Below are positions 562-15,400 of a stretch of 64,000 nucleotides of DNA, piece after piece. The notes beneath the pieces are model-generated. The model made no database searches, was not told the DNA's origin, and was given only the letters and a program-made list of their open reading frames with translations. The translations under genes were made by a program, and so were the position numbers. Each line of letters starts with the position of its first letter. Within the stretch, counting starts at the first letter, position 1. The DNA lies in the IMG/VR virus record IMGVR_UViG_3300031994_000061, positions 1-64,000 of that record; one strand, written 5' to 3'. Source of the stretch: a virus (lineage: Duplodnaviria > Caudoviricetes).

Positions 562-1044
562 CCAAAAAAGGGAACAGGGGCAAGGCGCAGAGCCGCATGG
601 CGCAATAAGCAGCCAGAGCCGCCTCCGAAGCCTCCCCCATCTTCCCAGATTCATTAACAATTAAAATGTAGAGAAATGAATAATAGTGAAAGACCCCCGC
701 CCAATTAAGGGATATAAGAATTATTATTTATTATGTATTTTAATGCCGAAATATAAAACTTAGAGAATAATGAGACAGAGAGACCGACCCTATTAAGGGA
801 TAATATTTTACACTGATTTTATTATAGTTTATAAGAAATTTATTCGTATACGTGCCACCAGAGAGCCGCATAACTAAGACGTTTACAGGCTTTTCACGGG
901 ACAACTCAACATAGGCTGATGGGGCATGGTACGTATCTGACTTTACCGCTCACTATACATATAACCTTTCTTTTTGAGTGGTTTGGTTGCCCGAAGTCAC
1001 TACGTCGATAATTATAGTAGCTATAAGGTGACCATTTCTAACGT

Positions 1045-1181
1045 GGGGTCTCCGCTTAGAGTTGGTAAGAGACGCTTAGGATTATATTGCATGGTAATAT
1101 AGGTTTATGGGTTAAATAGACTGTTCCCATCCAGTACCTAAGTTGACGCTCCGATGGCTGGTTTGAATCCAGCAGACCCCC
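1045..1181 (+). ncRNA. tRNA-like RNA with expanded anticodon arm
   Basis: acceptor GGGGTCT(1045-1051)/AGACCCC(1174-1180); T arm GCTGG-TTTGAAT-CCAGC (1157-1173); D-loop-like AGAGTTGGTA; CTTAGG/CCTAAG helix enclosing two hairpins. Confidence 0.5.
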
Positions 1182-1202
1182 CTCTTTGCGTTGTGAAACG
1201 CT

Positions 1203-1270
1203 GTTGTTTTCCATAATGAATTGTTAGGTTGAGGTGGGGATGCTCCAGATGGGGTGTCCCCACATTGTTT
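1203..1270 (+). terminator. U-rich anti-start-codon tract plus terminator hairpin
   Basis: GTGGGGATGCTCC-AGAT-GGGGTGTCCCCAC stem followed by T-rich tail; upstream TTTTCCATAATGAATTGTT. Confidence 0.7.
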
Positions 1271-1349
1271 TCTTAAAAAACGTTAAGGAATTTGGTTATA
1301 TTCTGGAATATGTGTAACTTTGCACCATCAACAATTAAACAATAGGATT

Positions 1350-1775
1350 ATGGTAATAGGATTTTTAAAGGTAGAGACCACCAGAAAGGTCTATGACAAC
1401 AGCTTCTACGGACACTATGAGGTGAAAGATGTGTACACCCAGACGATTACAAACGAGGAATACAATAACCTCGTAAACCCCAAGAATGGATTAATCGTCG
1501 CCATTAAAGACAAGGATGCGAAAGAGGAAACAACGTTTACCTTTAGTAAGTATTTCTACACAGGAGAACTTCAAAACAAGGCTGACGAGGACACAGAGTT
1601 TTCAGCAACGTTTGCCTACAAGGGTCATGTGTACGAGATTACGGTAGATGCTTGTGGACAACTTATCTCTCTGGATATGTGGATTAACACTGGTGACTAT
1701 GAGGATGGTACAGAGCCAGACGAGCACTACACCAAGAAAAGTAAAGGGATTAAATGGACACTAATGGAACTATAA
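1350..1775 (+). CDS. hypothetical early protein
   Basis: ORF track 1320-1775; start moved to ATG after promoter and AT-rich leader. Confidence 0.75.
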   Translation: MVIGFLKVETTRKVYDNSFYGHYEVKDVYTQTITNEEYNNLVNPKNGLIVAIKDKDAKEETTFTFSKYFYTGELQNKADEDTEFSATFAYKGHVYEITVDACGQLISLDMWINTGDYEDGTEPDEHYTKKSKGIKWTLMEL

Positions 1776-1779
1776 GATT

Positions 1780-2001
1780 ATGAAAAGGATTGCTATTATT
1801 GACCACCACGACCACGAACTGCTTATTGAGGACGTTAACGAACAGGAGCTGGAAGAAAAGTATGGTGGTGACGAACATGCGTACATCAATGACAACTACG
1901 CCTTCGAAGGTGACTACTCATGGGATTGGATTACTGACACCCAGTATTACCCAGAGGGTGACCCAGACCCAATCGAAGTAGAGTTCAAGGATTTGATTTA
2001 A
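1780..2001 (+). CDS. hypothetical acidic early protein
   Basis: ORF track, 73 aa, follows previous gene closely. Confidence 0.7.
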   Translation: MKRIAIIDHHDHELLIEDVNEQELEEKYGGDEHAYINDNYAFEGDYSWDWITDTQYYPEGDPDPIEVEFKDLI

Positions 2002-2086
2002 AAAACGTTAAAAGGTTGGGGTATCTCTTGGATATTCCAATCTTTTTTGGTAACTTTGCCACGTCAAACAATTAAACAATAGAATT

Positions 2087-2386
2087 ATGGAAAAAGAGAT
2101 TATCGCTCTATTAGAGAGCAAAGGAATGACCAGAATGGGATTCGGTCACAATGTCGAAATCACATCAGAGTTCGATGAAGATGGTGATGAATACCCAAGA
2201 ATTGTAAATGCAGTTGAGATTACTAATTCTGGGTTGATTGCCTACGATTCAAATGACGAGGATGAGAACGGAGAGTATGACCCTTGTTGGGAGGTATCTG
2301 AACTACCAGAGGATATACAAAAGGAAATCCTGTGGGCATTAAACACATTCCCTTGGGATGTCTGGAATTGGGAAACTTATAAATAG
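2087..2386 (+). CDS. hypothetical early protein
   Basis: ORF track, 99 aa, promoter at 2051. Confidence 0.75.
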   Translation: MEKEIIALLESKGMTRMGFGHNVEITSEFDEDGDEYPRIVNAVEITNSGLIAYDSNDEDENGEYDPCWEVSELPEDIQKEILWALNTFPWDVWNWETYK

Positions 2387-2390
2387 AATT

Positions 2391-2675
2391 ATGGAAACAA
2401 TAGTAATCAAAGGTGTCAAATGTTTGCTTCCTTGCAAGGTGTTATCACTTGGTCTGGATATGCAGTGTCATCATGTAGTTACACAGAGCGTTATTCTCTC
2501 TGTAAATGAAGCAGAAGATAAGGTTATCATTGAAAGTGAGGGGATTAAGATTCGTTTACGCATGAATGACTTAAATGACTTTTATCCAGATACTACGGAG
2601 AACTATAATATTCTGAAATCGCAATGTGATGAAGAATATAGTCAGTGGTATAATAGAATTGTGAATAATAATTAA
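2391..2675 (+). CDS. hypothetical early protein
   Basis: ORF track 2358-2675; start moved to METIV after upstream stop. Confidence 0.7.
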   Translation: METIVIKGVKCLLPCKVLSLGLDMQCHHVVTQSVILSVNEAEDKVIIESEGIKIRLRMNDLNDFYPDTTENYNILKSQCDEEYSQWYNRIVNNN

Positions 2676-2754
2676 AAAACAAGGCAATTTCTTTGTTATT
2701 CCAGATTTTTTGTGTAACTTTGCACCATATTTTACAACTTAATATTAATCAGTT

Positions 2755-3222
2755 ATGGATAAGACAACAACAAACATGAAAATGAGTGACGCTCTGGAGT
2801 TTATCACAGAGTTCATCAAGAAACAAGTGAAAGATGACTTCCGCAAAGGTAATGGTCTCCAGATTGTTCTGGATGCTTACAACAGAATGCGAGAGGACGA
2901 ACGTGGTGGCACTGACTACATCTTTAACATCAACAAGACAGAAGATTTGGCGTACCTTGTACAAAAAGGCATGATGTCAGCAAAGGCTATCGCTTTCGTG
3001 GTTAACACTCCCTTCCGTTACCCAGATGGATTGTTTATGTTCAACGGCAAGGCTGACGAGGGCATGATGCCAGTGGATAACATAGGGAATTTCCTGCTTA
3101 ACAGCCTCGATACGCTCATTCCATACGTCCTGCTGTATGTTGACAGGGTAAAGGAATATCAAGACTTCTACAGCCGTTATTTCACGGATAAGGTCTGGCA
3201 GATGGATTTCTTTGAAAATTGA
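2755..3222 (+). CDS. hypothetical early protein
   Basis: ORF track, 155 aa, promoter at 2715. Confidence 0.8.
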   Translation: MDKTTTNMKMSDALEFITEFIKKQVKDDFRKGNGLQIVLDAYNRMREDERGGTDYIFNINKTEDLAYLVQKGMMSAKAIAFVVNTPFRYPDGLFMFNGKADEGMMPVDNIGNFLLNSLDTLIPYVLLYVDRVKEYQDFYSRYFTDKVWQMDFFEN

Positions 3223-3334
3223 ATGCTATGGGATTTGGATTATTTCTACTATTATCTCTGGGGGTCATGGTTGCCGATGTGGTGACTTCCCCAGAATTTA
3301 AAAAGAAACTTAAGAACGTTAAAGAATAAGAGTT

Positions 3335-3475
3335 ATGAGAATATTTAGTTTATCATTCAGCTACAGCTACAGGGACGTTTTTCTCCCTTGCATTATCACA
3401 ACTACAGATGCGGAGTTTCACCCCAGAAAGCGACATAAGCTAAAGGGATGGCAGAAAGCGAAAAAAAATCGTTAA
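3335..3475 (+). CDS. small basic hypothetical protein (46 aa)
   Basis: manual translation MRIFSLSF...KAKKNR; fills gap before next promoter. Confidence 0.4.
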   Translation: MRIFSLSFSYSYRDVFLPCIITTTDAEFHPRKRHKLKGWQKAKKNR

Positions 3476-3547
3476 AAACTTGTTTTTCTGGAAAAAAATT
3501 TATATCTTTGCACAAAAATAGCAATAAGCAATATTTATATTACAACT

Positions 3548-3814
3548 ATGGCACAGAGAGTTAACGCAATAAACAAGGCTTTTGAAAACTGCACCTTTAT
3601 CAACAAGGATAAAGCCTGCGACATTATAACAGAGAGGATTGCAGACTACGAGGTTTTCACAGAGAAGCCAGAAGCAATAAAGATGGAGCATATCGACGAG
3701 ACACATGACCGATTATGCTTAGCATTCAGTAACGGAGAACTGGATGGTATTGTGACGTGGGGTAAAACCCAGAACGGATTGCATCACGTCTTTAAGAAAT
3801 TTGAGGCGAAATAA
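3548..3814 (+). CDS. hypothetical early protein
   Basis: ORF track, 88 aa, promoter at 3503. Confidence 0.75.
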   Translation: MAQRVNAINKAFENCTFINKDKACDIITERIADYEVFTEKPEAIKMEHIDETHDRLCLAFSNGELDGIVTWGKTQNGLHHVFKKFEAK

Positions 3815-3879
3815 GTAATATTTATTTGTCATAAAAAGTAACCATCCAGAATCTGTGAAGACAATGGATGGTTTTTTAT

Positions 3880-3895
3880 TGTTTCACGTGAAACA
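3880..3895. promoter_or_regulatory. parS: parS site (perfect palindrome TGTTTCACGTGAAACA)
   Basis: exact match to the widely conserved chromosomal parS consensus bound by ParB/Spo0J. Confidence 0.8.
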
Positions 3896-3896
3896 T

Positions 3897-3986
3897 GCGT
3901 CGGTGGTGGAATGGTGTACACATCAGACTTAAAATCTGACAGATGCCGTCAAAAGCGTCTTGCGGGTTCGACCCCCGCCCGACGTA
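3897..3986 (+). tRNA. tRNA-Leu (UAA), CCA not encoded
   Basis: acceptor GCGTCGG/CCGACGT; anticodon arm TCAGA-CTTAAAA-TCTGA; long variable arm; T arm GCGGG-TTCGACC-CCCGC; discriminator A. Confidence 0.92.
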
Positions 3987-4079
3987 CTAAAAAATGTTAA
4001 AAGATTGAGAGAACTTATGGTTTTCTCAATTTTTTTGTGTAACTTTGCACCATGTTAAACAACTTAATTTTTTTCAATT

Positions 4080-4715
4080 ATGGGACAATATTATAAACCA
4101 ACCTTTTTAAAGGAGAACTGGAAGAGAGTAAAGAAGCCAGTTGCTTATTCGATTCGCTCTTATGATTATGGAGCATTTTGCGGTCAGAAACTCACTGAAC
4201 ATTCATGGTGCGGTAATAAATTTGTTGCTGCTGCCTGCTGGCTGTTGGCAAACGAATACTACGGAAAACCCTTTGTGTGGCTTGGTGACTATGCAGACCC
4301 AAAGGTAACAAAGGCTTATCCAGCCGATGAAAATGATGAGGGAACTTGCAATCTCTATCCTATGGCACGAGAGATTGCGGAGAGTAAGAAGGCTAAAGAC
4401 TTCGCTCTGGCATTCGCTCGTGAATATGGCGACGATGCACCCTACTATGCCTACGCTATCAACTTCACCAAGAAGGAATACGTAAAGATTAAAAAGTATA
4501 ACAAAAAAGAATGGCGAACGCATCCCCTTCCAATCCTGTGCTGCGATGGTAATGGTGAAGGTGGTGGTGACTACGTTGTAAAAAGAGACAACTACGACTG
4601 GCAGAAGGATAAGCGTATCGGTTCATGGGCTTACGACCGCATCGGAGTTACCAACTCCAAGAATGCCATCAAGGGCATGAAAGAAATTGATGGGTATTTC
4701 ATTCCTGCTATTTAA
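4080..4715 (+). CDS. conserved phage/MGE hypothetical protein (MGQYY family)
   Basis: MGQYYKP start, KLTEHSWCGN, HPLPIL and GSWA motifs recalled from mobile-element proteins. Confidence 0.75.
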   Translation: MGQYYKPTFLKENWKRVKKPVAYSIRSYDYGAFCGQKLTEHSWCGNKFVAAACWLLANEYYGKPFVWLGDYADPKVTKAYPADENDEGTCNLYPMAREIAESKKAKDFALAFAREYGDDAPYYAYAINFTKKEYVKIKKYNKKEWRTHPLPILCCDGNGEGGGDYVVKRDNYDWQKDKRIGSWAYDRIGVTNSKNAIKGMKEIDGYFIPAI

Positions 4716-4800
4716 TAAATAATGTTAAGAAATCGGGTGAACATTTGGTTTTCCCGATTTTTTTGTGTAACTTTGCCATGTCAATTTAAACAATAAAGAT

Positions 4801-5094
4801 ATGAAAAGGTATAAAGTAAGAATTACGGACAGGAACGGCTTCTACAAGGAGTTCGATGATGGAAGTTGCATTGGTGGACACTATGGCGAGCCTATTGTGG
4901 TTACTATGTGTCTCAATGAAGCGGAGTTTAAGGCTCTTACAATGTTTATGGGGCAGGTGAGTGATTTACGTCACGATGTTGCCGTATTTAATCTATCTCA
5001 ATGCTGCGTGCTGACCCCTTGGCATAAGAGAGTGATGTGTAAGTATTTCAAGGCTTTCACAGAGCAAGTGACAATAGAGTTTTTATTTAAGTAA
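4801..5094 (+). CDS. hypothetical early protein
   Basis: ORF track, 97 aa, promoter at 4768. Confidence 0.75.
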   Translation: MKRYKVRITDRNGFYKEFDDGSCIGGHYGEPIVVTMCLNEAEFKALTMFMGQVSDLRHDVAVFNLSQCCVLTPWHKRVMCKYFKAFTEQVTIEFLFK

Positions 5095-5106
5095 AACAAT
5101 ATCATT

Positions 5107-5553
5107 ATGGAAAGAGAAGAGATTTTAAAGGAGATTCGCAACATCGTAGGAGGTAAGACCTTCACGTTCTCCGAAGATTATTTGAACAAGGCAGGTCACG
5201 CTTGCCATTGTGTAGGGCAGGAAAGACCTTATAGTTCTATCACTAAGAAATATTTATTTGTATCATGCTTTGCGGTCTATAAGTATGACGAAAATGCTGA
5301 GGAATATGGCACATCTATCCAGAAGTTCCCTATCGTTTATAACAGGATGACAGGTAGCTTTGTTAAGAAGGTTGCGCTTGACGATATGTTTACAAAGGAC
5401 TTGCAGAAGGTTCTGGATGACGTTAAGTATTACCTTTGGTGGGAGGCAGAAGTGAGACTGCCCAAACTCCAGATACAACTCGACGAGGCTAAGAAATATG
5501 CCAATATGTTCTATAAGATGAAGGAGCGTATTGAAAACGATTCTAAGGAGTAA
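5107..5553 (+). CDS. hypothetical early protein
   Basis: ORF track, 148 aa; followed by terminator. Confidence 0.8.
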   Translation: MEREEILKEIRNIVGGKTFTFSEDYLNKAGHACHCVGQERPYSSITKKYLFVSCFAVYKYDENAEEYGTSIQKFPIVYNRMTGSFVKKVALDDMFTKDLQKVLDDVKYYLWWEAEVRLPKLQIQLDEAKKYANMFYKMKERIENDSKE

Positions 5554-5566
5554 ACCTTTTAAAATC

Positions 5567-5606
5567 AGTGCGTTGGACATTGGGGAGTGTTCAATGCACT
5601 TTTTTT
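5567..5606 (+). terminator. intrinsic terminator
   Basis: AGTGCGTTGGACA...TGTTCAATGCACT stem plus T tract. Confidence 0.75.
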
Positions 5607-5690
5607 ATTAGGAAAAAATTTGGTTATTTCGAAAATTTTCTGTAACTTTGCCAACGATAAACAATAAGTATAATTAAATAATAAAGTAAT

Positions 5691-5816
5691 ATGAGTAGTC
5701 AATTTGGAAACCATGCTTATGAAAGCCCACAAGAAAAGTGGTTAGATGAGCAGTATGCATGTGAGAGAGCACAGGGTATCTATCGTAGTGGATATAATTC
5801 GCAGATAGACCATTAG
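5691..5816 (+). CDS. small hypothetical protein (41 aa)
   Basis: manual translation MSSQFGNHAY...; directly after promoter 5643; leader TAAGTATAATTAAATAATA is repeated before the next gene. Confidence 0.55.
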   Translation: MSSQFGNHAYESPQEKWLDEQYACERAQGIYRSGYNSQIDH

Positions 5817-5840
5817 TAAGTATAATTAAATAATAGTATT

Positions 5841-6062
5841 ATGGATATTAAAGAAGTAAGGAGACAATTAATTGATGGTTTGGAGAGTTGCTACACTCCA
5901 GAGAAAATTGAAATCATTGATAAAAGGTTGGGTGAGATTGCTAAGGAAAATGGTCTTACCAATGATGAACTAAACGAATATTGCTGGGCTAATTCAAGTG
6001 AAATGTTTGCTTGCATATTCGACTATAAGGAGTTTGATAAAAACAACTTTGAAGTAGATTAA
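5841..6062 (+). CDS. hypothetical early protein
   Basis: ORF track, 73 aa. Confidence 0.7.
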   Translation: MDIKEVRRQLIDGLESCYTPEKIEIIDKRLGEIAKENGLTNDELNEYCWANSSEMFACIFDYKEFDKNNFEVD

Positions 6063-6080
6063 TTAAATAACATTAGATAT

Positions 6081-6455
6081 ATGAAGAATACTAAGATTTA
6101 CGAAGGCTACAAGCGGAGTGCAGACTTCCTGCTGAACTTCCAGATGTGCCGTGCCTATCTTGGCGAGAATTGTGGTGTAGCACGCATTGTTGAAATTATC
6201 CTTCTGGGCAAGTTCGGTAGTGAATTTGACTTGAACGACCCTAAGAGTTACAAGCGTTTTTCCGAGGCTATCAGAGACTCACAAGGCAAGCGTAATGCCA
6301 TTATCGAATTTAAGCATTTCGACTTCAAGGAGAGTGTTGAGGACATTTTATCCAAGTTCGTGGAAAGCAAGTTCGATAAGATGGTAGCTGCCATAAAGGT
6401 AAATCTGGGGAACTATCCGCTTAAGTTCCGTGACATTGTGGAGCGATATTCTTAA
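6081..6455 (+). CDS. hypothetical early protein
   Basis: ORF track, 124 aa. Confidence 0.75.
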   Translation: MKNTKIYEGYKRSADFLLNFQMCRAYLGENCGVARIVEIILLGKFGSEFDLNDPKSYKRFSEAIRDSQGKRNAIIEFKHFDFKESVEDILSKFVESKFDKMVAAIKVNLGNYPLKFRDIVERYS

Positions 6456-6515
6456 AAAACGTTAAGGAATTTGGTTATTTCCTGGGTTTTGTGTAACTTT
6501 GCACCACCAAACAAC

Positions 6516-6550
6516 AAGGGAGAAAGAAGGTTCGAGTCCTCGCTCCCTTT
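6516..6550 (+). other. tRNA T-arm/acceptor minihelix in 5' leader
   Basis: AAGGGAG...AGG-TTCGAGT-CCT-CG-CTCCCTT just downstream of promoter 6494. Confidence 0.5.
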
Positions 6551-6583
6551 CAAATATTAACAAACAATTTAATTTAAAAGATT

Positions 6584-7051
6584 ATGGAAAAGAAAGTTTA
6601 CGAAATTAAGACTAACAAGGGTAAGAAGACCCAGTATGTTAGATGTGAGCCGACCAGTAACGAGAATATCGTTAAGATGGCTAAAGAGACAAACATGCTC
6701 GTTTCAAAGAAGGAAGTAGCATCGGCAGTGGTTACGGAAGTTAAAGACCCTTCTAAACTCAATCCAGACCATATCTGGGATATTTACCCAAAGATGGCAG
6801 TCCTGTGCTTCGAGGACGAAGAGGGCGATAAACAGACAGTCTGCATCGTTCGTGACCAGCAGTTTGGAACTGATGACCTTCGCAAAGAGCTATACGAGAT
6901 TCTGGCAGAGCGGTTAGCACTGGCAGAAGAAGACGATGAAGATGCTGAGGTTCTGGCTGACTTCAACACTATGATTGATAGCTTGACTATGGGTGTTTGT
7001 GGGAACTGGCTCGACTACGAGGTCTACTATGAGCATCTGGATTTGATATAA
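6584..7051 (+). CDS. hypothetical acidic early protein
   Basis: ORF track, 155 aa. Confidence 0.8.
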   Translation: MEKKVYEIKTNKGKKTQYVRCEPTSNENIVKMAKETNMLVSKKEVASAVVTEVKDPSKLNPDHIWDIYPKMAVLCFEDEEGDKQTVCIVRDQQFGTDDLRKELYEILAERLALAEEDDEDAEVLADFNTMIDSLTMGVCGNWLDYEVYYEHLDLI

Positions 7052-7128
7052 CGCTTCTTTCCATATCTAATATTTAGTTGTTGACGCTGGGCTGTGGCTT
7101 GCTAGGCAGGTTGCAGCCCTTTTATTTT
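7052..7128 (+). terminator. anti-start-codon tract plus terminator hairpin
   Basis: CTTCTTTCCATATCTAATATTTAGTTGTT then GGGCTG...CAGCCC plus T tract. Confidence 0.7.
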
Positions 7129-7203
7129 CTTAAAAAATATTAAAGGATTTGGTTATTACATGGAAAATGTGTAACTTTGCAGCGTCAATAAAACAATAAA
7201 GTT

Positions 7204-7434
7204 ATGGAATATAGTTTAATCATTGAAAAGAAAAATGCTGACCCAGAGTATAAGAATGGGTTGAAGCAATGGAGAGACGTTACGGCTATTCTTAGGAATG
7301 GGCTTGACCAGTGGACTATTAGCGTGCATATATATAAGTATAGCAGTGATAACCGCTTACTTGGAGAGAAGCACGTCACTATGGGTAATCTCTGGGATAT
7401 GACAAATTCACTGACCGATAAGGTCTTATTATAA
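7204..7434 (+). CDS. hypothetical early protein
   Basis: ORF track, 76 aa, promoter at 7172. Confidence 0.7.
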   Translation: MEYSLIIEKKNADPEYKNGLKQWRDVTAILRNGLDQWTISVHIYKYSSDNRLLGEKHVTMGNLWDMTNSLTDKVLL

Positions 7435-7455
7435 ACAACTAACAATTATAAGATT

Positions 7456-8205
7456 ATGGGAAATAAGTTAATTGCAAGGTATCGTCTGGCTAACAAACTA
7501 TTGAAGGTTTACCAGCACGAAGGTAAGGCAGGCATTTGGCTGCGTGGTGTTATGTATGAAGATAAGTGGGATGTCACAACTTCACCAAACAGGCACAGAC
7601 TCGTTAAGGTTGAGGCTGTTAACTTCGATAATGGTACAGAGAATGATGTACGTCGGCATTTTAAAATGATGTGCGCTCGCCCTGTTACGTCTGATGGTTA
7701 TATCGACGTCAATCACAGGGTTATCTGGACTAACGACAACTACGACGAGTGGGAAGCATGTATGCTTATCGACTATCCAGACGAGGAAACAAGGGAAGAA
7801 GAAGGTATCACTATTGACTACGAACGTTATCACGAAGATTGTGACCTGTGTCTTGATGACGAAAGGGCTAATCTGGATATTGAAGTAGATGGCTGTATCG
7901 TGGCTTTCGTTGACCTTGGACTCTGGGATGGCAGACATAATGGTGGTGGTATTATCGGCACTAACGTTAAACAAATTCTGCGTTCTGATTGTGAATATCT
8001 GGATTGGTATTGTGACCAGCATAACGTCCGCTGTAGGGCTTCGCATCACGACGGCACTAACTACTACCTTTACAGGGTTGCAAAGAGCCGTGAGCAGGCT
8101 GAAAACCTTATTAATGCCATTGCCTACAAGGGTATGACAGAAGAGCAGTTTAGAAAGGCAACCAGAAGCCTACGCCCCTACGTGGCAAAGGTGTATGGAT
8201 GGTAA
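7456..8205 (+). CDS. conserved MGE hypothetical protein (DLGLWDGR...HHDGTN family)
   Basis: C-terminal IVAFVDLGLWDGR and SHHDGTNYYLYR motifs recalled from phage/ICE proteins. Confidence 0.75.
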   Translation: MGNKLIARYRLANKLLKVYQHEGKAGIWLRGVMYEDKWDVTTSPNRHRLVKVEAVNFDNGTENDVRRHFKMMCARPVTSDGYIDVNHRVIWTNDNYDEWEACMLIDYPDEETREEEGITIDYERYHEDCDLCLDDERANLDIEVDGCIVAFVDLGLWDGRHNGGGIIGTNVKQILRSDCEYLDWYCDQHNVRCRASHHDGTNYYLYRVAKSREQAENLINAIAYKGMTEEQFRKATRSLRPYVAKVYGW

Positions 8206-8315
8206 GGCTGTAAGTATCCATAATTATAAAAATTGTTAAAAAGTCGAGGAGACCTTTGGTTTTCTCGATTTTTTTGTGTAACTTTGCCGTGTCAAACAAT
8301 TAAATATTAAGTATT

Positions 8316-8624
8316 ATGGAATTACAAAATTTTGAAAACGTGCTTACTGATGGCACAAAGGTGGTTACTCTGGGGATTACAAAAGACCAGAATGACATTG
8401 TATTAAAGATGTTGGAAACTGATTCTGATTCGTTCGGCAATTATTCTCTGGAAGAACCAGACCCAGAAATGGTGGACGTCTGGATTTCGGATGCTTTTAG
8501 TGAAGGTAACGAAGATTACGCACAAGCATTGCAGGATGGGTTAGCAAAAGGTGCTGACATCTATACTCTGGAAGATAGTATAGGTGCTTTTCACCAGACA
8601 TTAGGAGAGGTAATAGTATATTAA
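8316..8624 (+). CDS. hypothetical acidic early protein
   Basis: ORF track, 102 aa, promoter at 8279. Confidence 0.75.
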   Translation: MELQNFENVLTDGTKVVTLGITKDQNDIVLKMLETDSDSFGNYSLEEPDPEMVDVWISDAFSEGNEDYAQALQDGLAKGADIYTLEDSIGAFHQTLGEVIVY

Positions 8625-8646
8625 ACAACTTAACAATTTTACAACT

Positions 8647-9312
8647 ATGAGTAAATTAGATGGAATAACAAAGAGCAGAAGCAAGTCCGAGAGCTACAAG
8701 GGCTTTGCAATCATTAGAGTGTTGGCAGTTCACCATTGGTGGAATAACTTCAATAAGCGTTACGAAATGAGCAGGCAGTACGAGACTAAGAGAGAGGTCT
8801 ATTACGAGTTCTGCAAGGAGGGTGAGGAAACCAGACCTTCACAGGCTTATGGCGTGACGAAAAAGACAAAGGACGAGCTAAAGGAGTGCATCGACAACAT
8901 GATTTCTGGCAAGGAGATTTATTTCACCGAAGCCGAGCGAGAAAAGTATGTGTACAAACCTAACCACAAATGCAAGTGGGCGTATGGTTACAAGTCACTT
9001 ATGCAGATTCTAAAGGAGCATAAGAAGGCTGACAAACGTATGAAAATCCTGTTGGAAGATAGGCTTGATGATGCAAACTTCCACTACGAGGCAGGGGAAC
9101 TTGCAGATGAACACTATGAGGCACTGGAAGATTACATAGCCAGAACCTATCAATTCCGAGAGAAGTTTGAAGTCTATACATCTACGATGCACAAACGTAT
9201 TGATAACCCAGAAGGTCTTGTAGATGGACTTAAAAAAGTACTGGAGGACTATTTGCGCAAGGTAGGCGTTAAGGACACGTCAGTAAATGTGAAATTTGTT
9301 AAAGAATGGTAA
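8647..9312 (+). CDS. hypothetical early protein
   Basis: ORF track, 221 aa. Confidence 0.8.
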   Translation: MSKLDGITKSRSKSESYKGFAIIRVLAVHHWWNNFNKRYEMSRQYETKREVYYEFCKEGEETRPSQAYGVTKKTKDELKECIDNMISGKEIYFTEAEREKYVYKPNHKCKWAYGYKSLMQILKEHKKADKRMKILLEDRLDDANFHYEAGELADEHYEALEDYIARTYQFREKFEVYTSTMHKRIDNPEGLVDGLKKVLEDYLRKVGVKDTSVNVKFVKEW

Positions 9313-9390
9313 AAGATTGGGGCAAGGTTTGGTTAATTCAGATATTTTCCGTAACTTTGCCCCATCAAACAATTAATAAAACATTTAGAT

Positions 9391-9663
9391 ATGAGTAAGA
9401 CAGCAAGAGTCCTTTATTATGTGGACATGGATGATAGCCACAAGTCAGCATTTCTGGTGGTGGATAGCTCACAGGATTTGCGAGACAGCAAGGTGGTTGA
9501 AAAGATTAGAGACGAGTTAGAGGTATGCGGCTTTGGCAGAAAGGGTGTGTGTGGCTCTGTTGCATGGGAGCTGGCTCACAATGAGGTTGCCGAGCTGGAG
9601 TGTCAGATGGGTAGATACCAGTTTGGCATTGAAGACGTGCCTGTAATGCCCTTGATTGGTTAG
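9391..9663 (+). CDS. hypothetical early protein
   Basis: ORF track, 90 aa, promoter at 9352. Confidence 0.75.
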   Translation: MSKTARVLYYVDMDDSHKSAFLVVDSSQDLRDSKVVEKIRDELEVCGFGRKGVCGSVAWELAHNEVAELECQMGRYQFGIEDVPVMPLIG

Positions 9664-9704
9664 GACTTGAATAAGTACAAGAGAGCTATAAAAAGAACAC
9701 AGGT

Positions 9705-9950
9705 ATGAAGATACGTATATTACACGCCTCCGTTAATCCAGAGAAATACGACGTGAAGAAACTGGCTTCAATGGGCTTTGGAGAGGCACAGGAGTTTTTC
9801 GAGGATGACCCCATAGGTTGCTGTAACTGGGGTGTTGATGATGTTGACCCGACGGTATTCAACTGCAAGCATTATTCTCCAGACGGAGCTACAGGAGGCG
9901 ACGGAAGTGATGCCCTGTTTGTCTGGTTTAAACTTGTTCCTTGGCAGTAA
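9705..9950 (+). CDS. hypothetical early protein
   Basis: ORF track, 81 aa. Confidence 0.7.
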   Translation: MKIRILHASVNPEKYDVKKLASMGFGEAQEFFEDDPIGCCNWGVDDVDPTVFNCKHYSPDGATGGDGSDALFVWFKLVPWQ

Positions 9951-9982
9951 ATATTATATATAAACTATAAAAGCATAACATT

Positions 9983-10264
9983 ATGAACAAGACATTAGCA
10001 AGAATGCGTGGCATAGCTCACGCCCAGAACTCCATCCGAAAGAGTCTTAAGGAACAGGAGGAAAAGAACAAGTCACTTAGAGAACAGATTACGCCCATCT
10101 GGGATGACAAGTCAAAGGATTCTGTAGTAGCTGAGCTATCAGTCTCCCTGTCTCTGGGACGTGCTCGTGTTCGTGCGGCACAGGTAGCCCTGCACGAGCT
10201 AAAGAAGTCATTCCGCAACTACAACAAGCGGTACGACAGAGCACAGCGACATGCAGCTCATTAA
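9983..10264 (+). CDS. basic coiled-coil hypothetical protein
   Basis: ORF track, 93 aa. Confidence 0.7.
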   Translation: MNKTLARMRGIAHAQNSIRKSLKEQEEKNKSLREQITPIWDDKSKDSVVAELSVSLSLGRARVRAAQVALHELKKSFRNYNKRYDRAQRHAAH

Positions 10265-10347
10265 AAAATGTTAAAAAGTTGGGGTAACTCATGGTTATTC
10301 CAACTTTTTTGTGTAACTTTGCAGCGTCAATTTAAATTATATGTATT

Positions 10348-11004
10348 ATGGAAAGAACATTTGAAATTATCCCCAACTACATCGACACCATTATAGTGTA
10401 CGATACGCCTGCTAACCGCAAGGCATTGAGAAAACTGGAGCACCCATTTAACAAACTCCACGAGTTCGACGAAAACGGAGAGTGTGAAATTGAAATGGAG
10501 TTCTACGATGGACTGGCTATAGCTACAGATGGTAGCGGTCTGTTTATGACTTACTCTAAGATGGAGTGTATCAAGGAATGCACGAGGAAACAGAATGCCA
10601 TCTGTGACTACACTGGCATTGATGACGGGATTAACCAGTATGACGTTTGTCTCAAATATGGTAAACTGGATTGCGACCCAAAGAATAATGCGTATGTAAA
10701 ATCAACTGGAGACAACGCCTTCAAACTGGCTGAAACCTTTATCCTGCTTGCTGCCGATATATACAAACAGATATACAATATGTCGGGAGTCTATGGCTAC
10801 GACACCGCTGTAGAACTTGTACGCAGCGCAGCACTACGCTTCGAGGCTGAACTGGACTGGCAAGGTGCTTCGGAAGAGCGTGACTACATACTGGAAATGG
10901 AAAAGTTCGAAGAAAAAGAACTGGAGAGTCTTCGTGCTATCTACGATACGGATAGTGATAAGAACTTGCAACGTCATAGTATCAGCAAGACAAGACCACA
11001 TTAA
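10348..11004 (+). CDS. hypothetical early protein
   Basis: ORF track, 218 aa, promoter at 10314; last ~15 codons lie in a direct repeat. Confidence 0.8.
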   Translation: MERTFEIIPNYIDTIIVYDTPANRKALRKLEHPFNKLHEFDENGECEIEMEFYDGLAIATDGSGLFMTYSKMECIKECTRKQNAICDYTGIDDGINQYDVCLKYGKLDCDPKNNAYVKSTGDNAFKLAETFILLAADIYKQIYNMSGVYGYDTAVELVRSAALRFEAELDWQGASEERDYILEMEKFEEKELESLRAIYDTDSDKNLQRHSISKTRPH

Positions 11005-11090
11005 TTGTTAATAAACTATAAAAGATTGGAGTAATACGTGGTTATTCCAATCTTTTTCCGTAACTTTGCCCCATCAAACAATTAAATAAC
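10958..11090 (+). repeat. ~130-bp direct repeat, copy 1
   Basis: ATAAGAACTTGCAACG...TAACTTTGC...AATTAAATAAC, near-identical to 12418-12551. Confidence 0.92.
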
Positions 11091-11097
11091 GAATTAT

Positions 11098-11349
11098 ATG
11101 GAAAAGATTGCAAAATTACGCAAGCAGGTTAAGACCTATGCAACGAAGTACCACAACATGACCGCAATGACAGGTTATGGCAAGAAGATTGAAATGCTCT
11201 ATGATGGCGAGGTGATTGGCACTTACGAGTTATGGAGTATGTACGAGCCAGATTGCAAGACCCCAGAGGAATGGCTTAATAGCAACATCTGTTTCGAGAT
11301 TAGTTTGAAACATCGTGATATTGAAAAGGTTACTCTACGGATGATATAA
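11098..11349 (+). CDS. hypothetical early protein
   Basis: ORF track, 83 aa. Confidence 0.75.
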   Translation: MEKIAKLRKQVKTYATKYHNMTAMTGYGKKIEMLYDGEVIGTYELWSMYEPDCKTPEEWLNSNICFEISLKHRDIEKVTLRMI

Positions 11350-11428
11350 GACGATTTCTTTTCTTTGCTCATATCTTATAAGTTGATGCAGGGTGTTGAC
11401 AATTCGGTCAGCACCCTTAATTTTTTTT
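11350..11428 (+). terminator. anti-start-codon tract plus terminator hairpin
   Basis: CTTTTCTTTGCTCATATCTTATAAGTTG then AGGGTGTTGAC-AATTCG-GTCAGCACCCT and T tract. Confidence 0.7.
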
Positions 11429-11494
11429 AACACTAATTATTTGGCTATTTCATGGTTTTTGTGTAACTTTGCAGCGTCTAAACAATTATTAGTT

Positions 11495-11743
11495 ATGGAG
11501 AAACAAGTCATTAAAAAAGGTACGAAGGTTGAATATCGCTTACCCAACGATAAAGAAACCAATGTAGCAGTGGTTGTAGCCATTGAGGAATGCGAGTGTG
11601 GCGAAAAGTATGGTGAACCCATCGACGAAGTAAACTTCGATGATAGGGCTGGAGATTTCGGGCATGGTGTTGAATACACTTTCAGCCTTGATAATCATAA
11701 GTGGTGTTACGGCTATCAGATTGTAAACATTATTAACAACTAA
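11495..11743 (+). CDS. hypothetical early protein
   Basis: ORF track 11393-11743; start moved to MEKQV downstream of promoter 11464. Confidence 0.75.
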   Translation: MEKQVIKKGTKVEYRLPNDKETNVAVVVAIEECECGEKYGEPIDEVNFDDRAGDFGHGVEYTFSLDNHKWCYGYQIVNIINN

Positions 11744-11796
11744 ACAAATAAATGTACTTAAATCAGTACAAGTAGGTTATTTAATACGCAATCATT

Positions 11797-12297
11797 ATGG
11801 GAGTATCAGAGATTTACCAAGAGATTATGACCAAGTACCCAAACTTGGTTGAAAAACTTCTTGACAAGAGCAGTCTGGAGAGTGATAGTGAACGCCAGAC
11901 CATTTACGGAGATTTGATGGATTGGTTACGTGATTACTACACGATTATACCATTAGCTGACAGGGAACAGGTTGCAAGGTTGTTGCTGGGCAGCTATGTT
12001 ATAAGTCATCCATATTGCCTTCAGAAAACGTACATCGTCTTACAAGAGAGTAACGTGGACGGAGAGATTATTATCAACGCTGTACCATGCGCTACTCTGG
12101 AGGCTGCAAGAAAGGTATTACAGAACGAAAAGAACACTATCCTGCAAGATTCCCCTCACTACGACCACTACACTCCAGAAGAGTTGGAAGAAGAGTTCGA
12201 GATTGAAGAGGACGATGACCGCTGGTATATCAACGACCCCAGCGATGACTACTATGAGGACATTAAGATTATCGAGAAGGTGATTGTCGTGCGCTAA
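11797..12297 (+). CDS. hypothetical acidic early protein
   Basis: ORF track, 166 aa. Confidence 0.8.
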   Translation: MGVSEIYQEIMTKYPNLVEKLLDKSSLESDSERQTIYGDLMDWLRDYYTIIPLADREQVARLLLGSYVISHPYCLQKTYIVLQESNVDGEIIINAVPCATLEAARKVLQNEKNTILQDSPHYDHYTPEELEEEFEIEEDDDRWYINDPSDDYYEDIKIIEKVIVVR

Positions 12298-12314
12298 TAA
12301 TATATACACTATAT

Positions 12315-12464
12315 ATGAACGATAACAGGTTTTACGACAGGCTTACAGGGAGAAGGATTGCACCCTACCCCAGCATGATGCCACGCAGGAGCATGAGAGA
12401 GGTAAAGGCTGACTTTAATAAGAACTTGCAACGCCATAGTATCAGCAAGATAAGACCTCACTGA
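12315..12464 (+). CDS. small hypothetical protein (49 aa) sharing its C-terminus with 10348-11004
   Basis: manual translation MNDNRFYDR...KNLQRHSISKIRPH. Confidence 0.55.
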   Translation: MNDNRFYDRLTGRRIAPYPSMMPRRSMREVKADFNKNLQRHSISKIRPH

Positions 12465-12551
12465 TTGTTAATAAACTATAAAAGATTGGAGTAATACGTG
12501 GTTATTCCAATCTTTTTTTGTAACTTTGCAGCATCAAACCAATTAAATAAC
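12418..12551 (+). repeat. ~130-bp direct repeat, copy 2
   Basis: near-identical to 10958-11090 (offset 1460 bp). Confidence 0.92.
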
Positions 12552-12557
12552 AACATT

Positions 12558-13247
12558 ATGGAAAAGTTTATCGACATTAACAAAATGGTTTTCAGCAACA
12601 CACCTGCCGAGAACATCTTACACTACATCAAGACTGCATCACCGCAGGAGATTCGTAAAACCACACCTGCAACTATCCTTCGCATCATTAGTGAGTGCAA
12701 GAATGATGATGGTGATTTTTGGATTGATTCTGACCGCAGGGCAGGAAACAATTGGGATAGCACCATCGAGCACTTGTATATCTATGGTAATAGACCAATG
12801 CTGATGTTCTATGTGCAGGGTGACAAAACTGATACATCTACAAGTGTCAGCTATACTGAATTTAATTCCTGCAATGGGTATCGTGGTTCTTGCAGGTTGG
12901 GTAGCTTTAGATATGATGCTGACGAGGTGGCAGACGTTATTCGCTGCATCCTTGCAGAGTATGTGTATTACACCTACATTGAGAAAGCAGATAGGGAGCA
13001 GGCACAACGTATAGCAAAGTTACTGAACTACAAGGTAGTAAACCCAGTGTGTGACTATTTCTATAAGGAGTTAAGGCTTAGTAACCTGCCTTTCTCTTAT
13101 GCCACTACGACACCGAGATACAAACAATACTGCAATGGCAAGGAAGCTATTGAAAACTATGCTAAGGAGCACGTCAATGACTTGGAAGGCAAGACCGAAG
13201 AGGAACTTATTACCATATACAAGAAGGTGTTTAGGGAAGGAATGTGA
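12558..13247 (+). CDS. hypothetical early protein
   Basis: ORF track 12498-13247; start moved to MEKFID after promoter 12521. Confidence 0.8.
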   Translation: MEKFIDINKMVFSNTPAENILHYIKTASPQEIRKTTPATILRIISECKNDDGDFWIDSDRRAGNNWDSTIEHLYIYGNRPMLMFYVQGDKTDTSTSVSYTEFNSCNGYRGSCRLGSFRYDADEVADVIRCILAEYVYYTYIEKADREQAQRIAKLLNYKVVNPVCDYFYKELRLSNLPFSYATTTPRYKQYCNGKEAIENYAKEHVNDLEGKTEEELITIYKKVFREGM

Positions 13248-13302
13248 TTTTCGTTTTTCATATTTGGTGGCTGGCTCTATGCGAATAGGGTCAGTCATTT
13301 TT
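13248..13302 (+). terminator. anti-start-codon tract plus GCGA-loop terminator
   Basis: TTTTCGTTTTTCATATTTGG then TGGCTGGCTCTAT-GCGA-ATAGGGTCAGTCA and T tract. Confidence 0.7.
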
Positions 13303-13379
13303 ATTAAATAATATTAAATAATTTGGATATATGCTGGATAATGTGTAACTTTGCACTATCAATTTAACAAACATGAGTT

Positions 13380-13685
13380 ATGGATAAGAGCAAGGTTAGA
13401 TACATCGTAGTGGTGTTCATTGATGGTGTTGGATGCACCCTGCAAGAAGGTAACGTCTTAGCATGGTTCTTTAGACGTTATCCGAAGTGCTACCAATACT
13501 TCGAGAGCGCAAGAAAGAAAGCGAATAGGTTACTCTACCAATACGTGTGCGAAAAGGTATGCGTGTTCAAGGTGGAACTTGAAGAAAGATTATCCTGCGA
13601 CCAATACGACAAGTGGTGCGAGGACGAGAACAGAAATATGTGGGATTCATCTAAATTGTTTAACAATATTGATATAAGGTCATGA
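13380..13685 (+). CDS. hypothetical early protein
   Basis: ORF track, 101 aa, promoter at 13346. Confidence 0.75.
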   Translation: MDKSKVRYIVVVFIDGVGCTLQEGNVLAWFFRRYPKCYQYFESARKKANRLLYQYVCEKVCVFKVELEERLSCDQYDKWCEDENRNMWDSSKLFNNIDIRS

Positions 13686-13797
13686 AGAAGTATAAGTATA
13701 TTAACGGAATCAAGCACAAGGCAATAGGCTACGCCTACGATGGTAAACCGATTGGCTGGATTGCTTGTGGTAAGAACGATTAAAAACATATAAGGTT

Positions 13798-14148
13798 ATG
13801 AGAGCAAGGCAATCATTTACAACAGAGGGCAAGCGAATTTCTTTCAGTGTTGATAACAACTATTACGTTATCGGAGAGGACAAGAAAAAGGTCTTTAGTG
13901 GCTCTTTTAATGCTTGCAAGTATGCAGTAGCCTACACAGAGGTTAAAGTGGATTGTGGGGAAAAATATGAGAATAGATTTGGTGTCCCTGCATCCATCCG
14001 CTATAACAATGGCTTGGTAGGTTATCAGAACATTACCTATTTCAACGATAGGACAGAAGCAATGGAGGACTTTAAGGGCAGACAGAAGTTAACCCCGAAG
14101 TTTATGGGAGGTAATTACACGGATGTATTTTTTATTGAAAATAATTAA
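13798..14148 (+). CDS. hypothetical early protein
   Basis: ORF track, 116 aa. Confidence 0.75.
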   Translation: MRARQSFTTEGKRISFSVDNNYYVIGEDKKKVFSGSFNACKYAVAYTEVKVDCGEKYENRFGVPASIRYNNGLVGYQNITYFNDRTEAMEDFKGRQKLTPKFMGGNYTDVFFIENN

Positions 14149-14152
14149 AATT

Positions 14153-14368
14153 ATGGCAAACGTTATTAGAGTAGGATTAGGGCAAACAAAAAGCGGTAAG
14201 ATTCTGGATAGAGAAACGCAGTGGTTTAATGCTGATTCCCAGAAGTCATTACTTATGGCTCTGGAGAGATTCCACGAAACCCATAAGCCATTGTTTATCT
14301 CCAGAGGTAACAAGGCTTACGAAGAGTTAAGTTTACAAGAGTTATTAGACATGATAGCAGAGAGTTAA
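14153..14368 (+). CDS. hypothetical early protein
   Basis: ORF track 14123-14368; start moved to MANVIR. Confidence 0.7.
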   Translation: MANVIRVGLGQTKSGKILDRETQWFNADSQKSLLMALERFHETHKPLFISRGNKAYEELSLQELLDMIAES

Positions 14369-14372
14369 GACT

Positions 14373-14600
14373 ATGGCAAGAAAGATTGTAAAGAAGACCA
14401 ACATATATTCGGTAGATTGGTGGCGAGGTGATTGGAATTATCGCACGACTACTGGCTGCGATTGGGAAGCGGTAAAAGAATGCAAGAGGGCAGCCAAACT
14501 AATGGGTGAGAAAGTTACCTACGAAAAGACTGATGTAAAGGAAGATGTTTACTACATCGACACTCATCGTGGTGGTTCACCGAGATTTATGGCACGTTAA
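14373..14600 (+). CDS. hypothetical early protein
   Basis: ORF track, 75 aa. Confidence 0.7.
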   Translation: MARKIVKKTNIYSVDWWRGDWNYRTTTGCDWEAVKECKRAAKLMGEKVTYEKTDVKEDVYYIDTHRGGSPRFMAR

Positions 14601-14710
14601 GTTACTTTCTACAACTCCAAATGTGAGAAGAAATACGATAAGGTGTACCCTGCATAATATATAATAAATGTTAAGGGATTTGGTTATTACATGGAAAATG
14701 TGTAACTTTG

Positions 14711-14968
14711 CACCGACTTAAAAAAGTACATAAAGGTACATAGGCATAACACATTATATTTTGTTTTGGATTAGTTAATCAATAACTTATCAGTCTGCGA
14801 AGATAGATAAGTTTTTATAAAGGACTTAAAAAAGTACATTACAACATATATAGGAAGATACAACTCGATTTGCTCATAATAATATTCAAAAGGTTTTTAG
14901 TTATTCATGTTTTTCATGGTTTTAGGTTTTATCCTGCTGGTCTGAGAAGATAAGCAGGATTTTTCTTT
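14711..14968 (+). ncRNA. candidate tandem small RNAs from a dedicated promoter
   Basis: promoter at 14703 with no ORF downstream; two units each starting GACTTAAAAAAGTACAT (14715, 14823) and ending in a hairpin plus T tract. Confidence 0.55.
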
Positions 14969-14997
14969 ATGTGTGTACGTGTCTCAATTGTCTCACG

Positions 14998-15013
14998 TGT
15001 TTCACGTGAAACA
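14998..15013. promoter_or_regulatory. parS: parS site (perfect palindrome TGTTTCACGTGAAACA)
   Basis: second exact copy; overlapped upstream by degenerate TGTCTCACGTG. Confidence 0.8.
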
Positions 15014-15039
15014 TAATACGTAATGTGTATGCGGGTGGT

Positions 15040-15400
15040 GCACCCTCCAGGAGCAGCCCAGGCGTGCCTCCCTACACAACACGAGCACGAAGGCAGGTAA
15101 GTGTGCTGGCAACACGAGCACACGAGAGTCAGCACAAGGTATCGTGACGTGCTGGATAATGTGTCGCCAGCATAACCTCAGCTACGCACCCACACGCTAT
15201 AATATATATTAATCTATATATAGGCGAACCAGTGTACCAGCTGGGTAGTACACCAGCACACCCAGCCTGCATCCTGCCAGCCTGCGGTTTGTAAAAACTT
15301 TTCATGCCCTATATAGTATATGCTGGCAGTTGTAAAGAAATCGGAAAACCCAGCCAGCATCCATCCAGCAAGCCAAATGTAAACGATTTGAAACAAATCT
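15040..15400 (+). repeat. CCAGC/CCTGC-rich intergenic tract
   Basis: dense CC(A/T)GC pentamers, mostly on the + strand; similar tracts at 16993-17290 and 18060-18665. Confidence 0.7.
15306..15322. promoter_or_regulatory. repeated motif CCTATATAGTATAT (copy 1 of 4)
   Basis: other copies at 17175-17190, and inverted at 18546-18562 and 19673-19688. Confidence 0.65.

Follow-up and report, generated by a model that had tools for sequence, protein, structure and literature searches.

The window examined here is a stretch of 64,000 nucleotides (nt) from a Bacteroidota phage, namely the first 64 kb (GC 38%) of an 85.9-kb viral contig (IMG/VR record IMGVR_UViG_3300031994_000061). Six U-rich tracts in this window, here termed E1 to E6, had been proposed by a sequence-only reading to form one family of small RNA (sRNA)-like 3' elements antisense to translation starts. 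Three of the six, E1, E3 and E6, were found to be genuine: they are complementary to both the leader and the start codon of the gene that follows, and probably block its translation. The element upstream of the helicase gene, moreover, co-evolves with its target in related phages (contigs labeled L0xx or G0xx below). Antisense complementarity to start regions of the phage's own early genes was thus borne out for E1, E3 and E6 but not for E2, E4 and E5, and nothing was found to point to the host mRNAs that had also been suggested as targets.

All six tracts were found at the positions claimed (1203, 3815, 7052, 11350, 13248 and 14865). In each, a CAT lies within a U-rich stretch followed by a GC-rich hairpin (1234-1263, 3840-3873, 7089-7119, 11390-11417, 13266-13299 and 14931-14960, respectively; + strand) and a T run, and GNRA-type loops (GTGA, GCGA and GAGA) were found among the hairpins. 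This arrangement of an unpaired stretch and then a terminator hairpin fits the sRNA-like build that had been described. Location in a 3' untranslated region (3' UTR) applies to E3 but not to E1, which lies behind a tRNA-shaped element, or to E6, which lies in a transcript free of open reading frames (ORFs) with a promoter of its own.

The elements were separated by comparing the duplex energy of each with the leader of the next gene to 1000 dinucleotide shuffles. By this approach, E3 (p=0.000), E6 (p=0.006) and E1 (p=0.021) exceeded the shuffled controls, as did an unlisted seventh tract at 8217-8234 (p=0.034), but E5 (p=0.11), E4 (p=0.24) and E2 (p=0.69) did not. When each element was scored by its longest perfect match within 110 start regions and compared to shuffles, values of p=0.017 and p=0.013 were obtained for E6 and E1, and E2, E4 and E5 were no better than shuffles against all 110 regions. 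A perfect match of at least 12 nt anywhere among the six elements arises in 32% of shuffles against these regions; therefore the 12-nt match TTTCCATAATGA between E1 (1208-1219) and the start of gene 5107 (complement at 5102-5113), although real as reported, means little alone. The perfect match to the helicase start is likewise real and is 14 nt rather than 13 in length (TTTGCTCATAATAA, 14869-14882 versus 15479-15492). A hidden Markov model (HMM) built from 13 early leaders and run with nhmmer over both contig strands detected inverted matches that were full-length for E3 alone (E=0.0018, with a score like that of real leaders) and partial for E1 (E=1.1), with no match of any kind at E2, E4, E5 or E6. 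E1, E3 and E6 are conserved in relatives, and the tracts of E2, E4 and E5 are not. The six elements are therefore heterogeneous, as the leader HMM, the next-leader shuffles, the tests against 110 start regions and the 14-nt E6 match separate them, and the proposal of a single family was not upheld.

E3 (7052-7088, + strand) is a full-length inverted early-gene leader that extends from the base after the -7 box to the ATG plus two codons, with its HMM match spanning 7089-7056 on the minus strand and model positions 1-38. It is followed by an intrinsic terminator (7089-7129, + strand; 14-bp stem with 8 GC pairs, T tract), and its downstream arm lies within the promoter (7148-7180), leader and start of gene 7204 (7148-7212, + strand). 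The duplex of E3 with the 7204 leader was calculated at -29.8 kcal/mol, and in a fold of the read-through RNA from E3 to 7204 the two arms shared 22.9 expected pairs compared to 11.7 with a shuffled element (p=0.01). The complementarity ends at about the start of the leader transcript. E3 is kept in G002, G001 and L026 and exceeds its flanks in conservation in three phages. In G002 it follows a different gene (a homologue of gene 6081, gene 6584 being absent), and in G001 the hairpin differs. The leader 5' end co-varies with E3, such that CAGCGTCAA is paired with TTGACGCTG in the window and G002, and TGTCAA with TTGACA in G001. A pattern search for further E3 homologues returned one true copy (L026) and seven chance matches in unrelated contigs. 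A 5'-3' panhandle of E3 with the leader of its own mRNA was considered and rejected, as its own leader ranked 21 of 110 and that of the next gene ranked 4.

E6 lies within an ORF-free transcript of ~100 or 250 nt (14716-14968, + strand) that carries two similar hairpin terminators (14783-14812 and 14931-14960) and in which no conserved ORF was detected on either strand by comparison of the window with L001. The promoter of this transcript (14679-14711, + strand) is identical at 33/33 positions to that at 7148-7180 and is conserved in L001 (9203). E6 itself (14862-14882, + strand) is complementary over 21 nt (86%) to the helicase gene's translation initiation region, with a perfect core at 14869-14882, and lies ~150 nt from the predicted 5' end of its transcript. 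The target arm (15479-15499) is part of the helicase promoter (15418-15450), leader and start (ATG at 15484), which together occupy 15418-15499 on the + strand; the gene product was assigned to phrog_1967 DNA helicase (E=7e-96). In a shuffle test applied to each lineage (1000 shuffles), the pairing of E6 with the helicase start gave p=0.001. The corresponding helix was predicted in a 650-nt read-through RNA, in which it spans 600 nt, with 16.5 expected pairs compared to 3.2 +/- 3.2 for shuffled elements (0/25 shuffles).

Helicase-based searches provided eight related contigs for comparison, and a profile search of genome contigs with the helicase alignment detected no relatives. In all lineages with at least 49% helicase identity, a terminator hairpin precedes the helicase ATG by 550-1050 nt, and this hairpin is homologous in L003, L007, L008, L010 and L017 (loop CAGTTGTGAAACTCG, co-varying stems). 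The 70 nt before the hairpin are complementary to the helicase start of the same phage, and these starts differ from one another (tttattATGagcaaa; aaaagtATGgcaaac; taataatATGgc; cttaatcgttATGgc). In L001 the element is as in the window, and an A>G change in the start gives a G.U pair. The complementary sequence is GCCATATTAT in L008 and GCCATATA in L003; L010 and L017 form a 26-27-nt duplex with one bulge (-19.5 and -24.6 kcal/mol, respectively); and the duplexes of L007 and L018 were calculated at -21.1 and -19.3 kcal/mol. By the lineage shuffle test, p<=0.002 was obtained in the window/L001, L007, L008, L010/L017 and L018, with four of the five clean lineages at or below this value, and in a matrix of cognate versus non-cognate combinations the cognate pairing was best in its column for 5/6 independent lineages. 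It is because of this co-variation across phage lineages that we regard the match of E6 to the helicase as biologically meaningful. More distant helicase relatives (L011-L016 and L019, 34% identity) encode the helicase in a tight operon without a non-coding spacer and are therefore uninformative on the anti-start element. In Bacteroides phage DAC16 the hairpin and spacer are absent and only an 8-nt complement was found, and this phage was left out of the count.

L010 and L017 carry TAT in place of CAT and retain the duplex of 26-27 nt; thus, the element in these two phages cannot be the start of an antisense ORF. That explanation was rejected for the remaining elements as well, since the minus-strand ORFs that begin at the CATs are short (12-52 amino acids, aa), overlap the tRNA-like element or sense genes and are not conserved, with the exception of L018, where a 52-aa minus-strand ORF starts at the site. 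A motif, GACTTAAAAAAGTACAT, precedes both hairpin units of the E6 transcript (14723-14739 and 14824-14840) and looks like an operator or processing site; relatives have AAGTAC/GTACTT palindromes at the corresponding location (GTACTTTTAAAAGTAC in L010, ~2192-2207).

E1 is the central part of a module that begins directly 3' of the tRNA-shaped element with a small GTGA-loop hairpin (GCGTTGTGAAACGC, 1188-1201, + strand; 5-bp stem). The hairpin is followed by the unpaired anti-leader TGTTGTTTTCCATAATGAATTGTTAGGTTGAG (1202-1233, + strand), which complements both the consensus of early leaders and the start of gene 1350, and by an intrinsic terminator (1234-1272, + strand) composed of the 1234-1263 hairpin and a T tract. 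The downstream arm lies within the promoter (1291-1323), leader and start of gene 1350 (1291-1360, + strand). The E1 core, TTCCATAATGAA[A]TTGTTAGGTTGAG, is identical in the window and five viral contigs, and the setting in all six is a tRNA or tRNA-like gene, the small GTGA hairpin, E1 and the terminator. Both the tRNA upstream and the gene downstream vary among the six contigs, but E1 is invariant. In the consensus fold the 30-nt core is unpaired and both flanking stems show compensatory changes, at 2 of 5 base pairs of the GTGA-loop hairpin (7 phage contigs) and at five pairs of the terminator stem. The read-through RNA from E1 to 1350 was predicted to form 22.3 expected pairs between the arms compared to 12.9 with a shuffled element (p=0.04). 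The element found at the E1 position in G003 is of other sequence, and its partner is the next leader of G003 itself (p=0.007).

Upstream of the E1 module, a promoter at 324-356 is followed by ~900 nt without a credible ORF, ending in the tRNA-shaped element (~1045-1181) and E1. Relatives have ordinary tRNAs in place of the tRNA-shaped element. The stretch at 324-1263 may encode a large non-coding RNA or a tRNA precursor; no Rfam match was detected within it.

Complementarity between a pre-hairpin tract and the next leader was found to extend beyond the flagged elements. Among 37 terminator-to-next-gene junctions scanned in the window, G002, G001 and G003, it was detected at 11 with p<=0.05 (~2 expected) and at 8 of the 37 with p<=0.013. 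The junction duplexes extend from just past the -7 box through the ATG to gene-specific codons 2-3, as in the matches of ATGAGCAAA with TTTGCTCAT, ATGCCAAAC with TTTGGCAT and ATGAAGAAA with TTTTTCAT. Strict specificity for the next gene was partly upheld, with the next gene within approximately the top 11% at 8/29 junctions; since the early leaders belong to one sequence family, the best partner is at times a different leader. When aligned, the arms are inverted copies that have diverged, 20-35 bp long with ~80-90% identity and indels, and the transition mismatches between them include 15 that are G.U-compatible on the sense-strand RNA versus 3 that are A.C. The target promoter was located between the two arms in the cases examined (1291-1323, 7148-7180 and 15418-15450), and likewise in relatives. 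The order of element and target on the same strand is kept across lineages even with 550-1050 nt of variable sequence between them. Complementarity in excess of chance, conservation and co-variation with the target were thus all observed.

We tentatively favor a primary mode of action in cis for E1, E3 and E6, which may be described as translational insulation. By this proposal, the three elements and, marginally, the tract at 8217-8234 would be sense-strand anti-leader elements located 5' of a terminator and a Bacteroidota-type promoter and, in each case, complementary to the leader, start codon and first codons of the gene under that promoter. Pairing would bury the A-rich start region, which has no Shine-Dalgarno site, and would block initiation. 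A transcript from the gene's own promoter would be without the inhibitory arm, because the promoter sits between the arms, and would be translated, while an upstream transcript that reads through the terminator would include both arms and fold shut. At the 3' ends of terminated transcripts, the same elements could additionally pair in trans. The elements are complementary to the leader behind the next downstream promoter, and action in cis on read-through transcripts would therefore be at least as likely as action in trans. Predicted folds of the hypothetical read-through RNAs contain the long-range helix for E6, E3 and E1. From these data we infer pairing in vivo, the repression of translation that it would cause, and the mode, cis or trans, in which it would operate.

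Several observations weigh against translational insulation in cis. A strong terminator lies between the arms; most element-bearing transcripts would therefore end before the target, which fits action in trans better. With its dedicated promoter and no ORF in either the window or L001, E6 looks like a stand-alone sRNA gene. Other early leaders pair with E1 and E3 equally well as or better than the adjacent one, and the next gene ranks 3-4 of 38. E1 is invariant despite differing downstream genes, and its next-leader pairing in G002 is not significant (p=0.14, rank 29/53). The helicase comparison covers few lineages, of which some are close relatives, L003 is weaker (p=0.14 in the lineage shuffle test), and the L018 site is ambiguous in that it may be the start of the 52-aa ORF.

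Possible, if on balance unlikely, is the main rival explanation, a narrower form of the sequence-only proposal, by which terminated transcripts or processed 3' fragments would accumulate and act in trans as 3'-end RNAs that base-pair with early phage mRNAs at their leaders and start codons. These RNAs would be a tRNA-trailer fragment (E1), a 3' UTR fragment (E3) and a promoter-driven RNA of ~100 or 250 nt (E6). The targets would be the entire leader family for E1 and E3 and specifically helicase mRNA for E6, with control of replication dosage or timing that may be likened to that by plasmid copy-control antisense RNAs or phage P1 c4. The conserved unpaired stretch directly 5' of a strong terminator hairpin with a co-varying stem is sRNA-like, and the consensus promoter and ORF-free state of E6 are both conserved in L001. 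The invariance of E1 in six contigs suggests constraint from many targets or from one shared target, the best partners of E1 and E3 are leaders other than the adjacent one, and the E3 complementarity stops about where the leader transcript begins. Chaperone-independent sRNAs that occlude starts, FopS, provide a precedent in Bacteroides (PMC11697453). Against action in trans, the same-strand place upstream of the target promoter is kept across lineages and would not be needed by a trans-acting RNA; the complementary stretches are long and broken up by bulges (25-35 nt) in place of a short seed; and if transcription units of equal strength paired stoichiometrically, the productive mRNAs of these genes would themselves be repressed. 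A wider form of this explanation, which we consider rather unlikely, is a genome-wide anti-leader grammar in a clade of large Bacteroidota phages that serves as a trans-acting RNA relay to time the early program. Early units, including tRNA genes, would then end in an RNA that silences the next start region or the whole leader family, such that the tRNA-trailer RNA of E1 would be a general shut-off of early translation and the E6 sRNA would set helicase dosage near the origin. If true, such a relay would work without Shine-Dalgarno sites or Hfq.

That the arms are inverted repeats at the DNA level without a role in RNA, whether as relics of inverted duplication of promoter-leader modules, as looping operator pairs or as inverton-like repeats, appears improbable. 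Their nature as diverged inverted copies is consistent with this, as are the visible mosaicism of the early region, with modules exchanged among relatives and one and the same promoter sequence at 7148 and 14679, and the position of the repeats on either side of a promoter as in invertons. However, E1 and E3 exceed their flanks in conservation, mismatches favor G.U by 15:3 on the sense-strand RNA, and helicase arms that have changed from lineage to lineage remain complementary, which is hard to explain for such short arms without selection for pairing. The arms also vary by junction, so a single DNA-binding protein could not read all of them, and the segment between the arms is in one orientation in all relatives examined, with indels in the arms unlike inverton repeats. 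The imperfect, indel-containing arms and the uniform orientation argue against an invertible promoter. Chance, by which CATs in U-rich terminator-proximal sequence would mimic the antisense of A-rich, ATG-containing Bacteroidota starts, is the correct explanation for E2, E4 and E5 (p=0.69, 0.24 and 0.11; not conserved), and a 12-nt perfect match among six such elements is expected in 32% of shuffles. As a general explanation chance is very improbable, since it fails for E3 (p=0.000; HMM E=0.0018), for E6 and its relatives (p<=0.002 in 5/6 lineages, co-variation), for the invariance of E1 and for the excess of 11/37 junctions at p<=0.05.

E2, E4 and E5 are unsupported as anti-start elements and represent ordinary U-rich sequence ahead of a terminator. 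E2 (3815-3839, + strand) is a U/A-rich 3' UTR before the terminator at 3840-3873; its in-context pairing gave p=0.42, and the tract is not conserved in L020, L021 and L026, where the hairpin is kept. E4 (11350-11389, + strand), a 3' UTR before the terminator at 11390-11417, gave p=0.04 for in-context pairing, yet its minimum free energy was no better than that of shuffles. In L001 the CAT half of E4 and the hairpin are missing through a 41-nt indel (window 11372-11412 versus L001:3847). At this site L001 joins TTTGCTCA directly to ACACCCTTAG where the window has the CAT half and the whole hairpin; the terminator hairpin here is apparently gained or lost as a whole. E5 (13248-13265, + strand) is a short U-rich 3' UTR before the terminator at 13266-13299, and its CAT tract is absent in G002, where the hairpin is kept. 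The unlisted tract TCCATAATTATAAAAATT (8217-8234, + strand) is complementary over 18 nt (78%) to the start region of gene 8316 (8303-8320) and is conserved in L001. It is a marginal candidate for a further anti-leader element, as p=0.034 was obtained by duplex energy and its in-context pairing was not significant.

The 85.9-kb contig is taken to be a fragment of a larger phage, as the IMG completeness of sister contigs (10-52%) suggests. By helicase (41% aa identity), its nearest cultured relatives are the Bacteroides thetaiotaomicron phages DAC16-23 and SJC03 of 167-179 kb; a search for near-identical phage records found none. The early region (1-19 kb, + strand) includes ~14 strong Bacteroidota promoters that follow the pattern TTTGGTTAT..N..TGTGTAACTTTGC, every one of which is followed by a conserved member of the leader family (roughly GCAcCaTCAAACAATTAAAtAA..attATGGAAAag). 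The common order at junctions is stop codon, short 3' tract, GC-rich hairpin and T run, promoter, leader and ATG. Comparison of positions 1-19000 with G001, G002 and G003 revealed strong mosaicism, with identical promoter-leader/terminator modules around different genes in each phage. A PHROGs search of 10 early proteins returned no family for 8 of them.

Further features of this region were noted. Compact modules were found at 2016-2046, 10279-10310, 11020-11056 and 12475-12521, in which the -33 TTTG element of the next promoter lies within the terminator stem; the terminator and promoter thus share sequence. Gene 6584, the protein of which has no relatives among viral contigs, is missing together with its promoter from G002, the closest relative, and its long 5' leader in the window includes a T-arm-like minihelix (GGGAGAAAGAAGGTTCGAGTCCTCGCTCCC, 6510-6545). 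A perfect 16-bp palindrome of parS type, TGTTTCACGTGAAACA, occurs twice (3880-3895 and 14998-15013), each time just 3' of a terminator, and is kept in relatives upstream of the helicase and after the homologue of gene 3548 (L003:4129-4144; L020 ~14412). GC-rich ORF-free blocks lie near the helicase and sigma-like genes (15020-15400, 16993-17250, 18060-18700 and 19383-19800) and hold repeated CCAGCA-type motifs and AT-rich TATATAGTATAT boxes, with homologous blocks in relatives (L001:9470-9900, L003:4150-4500). These blocks are candidates for an origin or iterons.

Post-transcriptional control is poorly known in Bacteroidota and their phages. Because Bacteroidota initiate on unstructured A-rich leaders without Shine-Dalgarno pairing, any RNA able to pair with such a leader is expected to act as a strong switch. 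An anti-leader that recurs at unit boundaries and co-varies with its target would show how neighboring early genes stay translationally independent, or are timed. The helicase start and its anti-start element beside an origin-like region provide a concrete, testable case, and reporter tests are feasible given the cultured DAC and SJC phages on B. thetaiotaomicron and the genetic tools in that host.

Among known systems, plasmid copy-control RNAs are antisense transcripts proper, made from the same locus as their target, and the c4 RNA of phages P1 and P7 lies upstream of its target in the same unit. E6 resembles these as a small RNA by an origin-like region, upstream on the same strand and complementary to the start of a replication gene. 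It differs from plasmid copy-control RNAs in being a separate inverted copy 600 nt away, with putative processing or trans action. In the pairing of the 3' and 5' UTRs of Staphylococcus aureus icaR mRNA and in the long-range Min Jou interaction of phage MS2, a distant segment (3' UTR or upstream) pairs with the ribosome-binding region to repress initiation, as proposed here. In those cases the pairing is within one mRNA or genome, whereas here the target is the next transcription unit across a terminator and promoter. The 3'ETS-leuZ RNA of E. coli, which is the external transcribed spacer 3' of a tRNA, acts as an sRNA sponge, and the tRNA region of phage T4 encodes small RNAs C and D (mentioned in PMC3014915). 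Similar to these, E1 is part of a tRNA or tRNA-like trailer, from which a stable fragment ending in a terminator could be released, although this putative fragment would be an anti-leader rather than a sponge.

The sequence-only reading had drawn a likeness to FopS, paralogs of ~65-70 nt that mostly have sigma-ABfr promoters of their own, share a conserved seed at the 5' end directed at host susC mRNAs, and bind RbpB (PMC11697453). As in FopS and GibS of Bacteroides thetaiotaomicron, an unpaired region precedes a terminator hairpin, and pairing beside the start codon is predicted to block initiation. However, the phage elements are heterogeneous and each is matched to a neighboring phage gene with complementarity of 20-35 nt; only E6 has its own promoter, and its seed is ~150 nt into the transcript. 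By cmscan against Rfam 15, only tRNA-Leu was detected in the window at the gathering score, and at E<=5 positions 1-17000 gave only unrelated chance matches besides, with no match to any family, Bacteroides sRNAs included. No homology to FopS or GibS was detected by this search, with the limit that the FopS structure has been deposited in Rfam (PMC11697453) and the presence of its model in the release is unconfirmed. Thus, the phage elements are not FopS, and they may work like FopS, by analogy, in occluding a start region that has no Shine-Dalgarno site, outside that family. Traits of 3' UTR-derived sRNAs (a shared terminator and a conserved unpaired seed) were seen for E3 (3-4 contigs) and for E1 as a tRNA trailer, but not for E6, which has its own promoter in the window and L001, or for the unconserved E2, E4 and E5.

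By analogy of structure and logic, the closest known system is the class of T4 genes represented by e (lysozyme), soc, 49 and I-TevI, in which long transcripts sequester the start region and transcripts from an internal promoter are translated (PMC3014915). In both systems, an upstream same-strand segment is complementary to the start codon region (here in E3, E1, E6 and relatives), the promoter of the gene lies between the arms such that its transcripts are without the 5' arm, and related phages conserve the structure. In T4, the pairing takes the form of short local hairpins that surround an 8-bp late promoter and a Shine-Dalgarno site (PMC3014915). By contrast, the loop described here is 90-1000 nt and includes a full intrinsic terminator and a ~45-bp Bacteroidota promoter, the target is an A-rich leader without a Shine-Dalgarno site, and the architecture recurs at many junctions of the early region. 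Translational insulation by E1, E3 and E6 would thus extend the principle of T4 gene e to a distant phage-host system.

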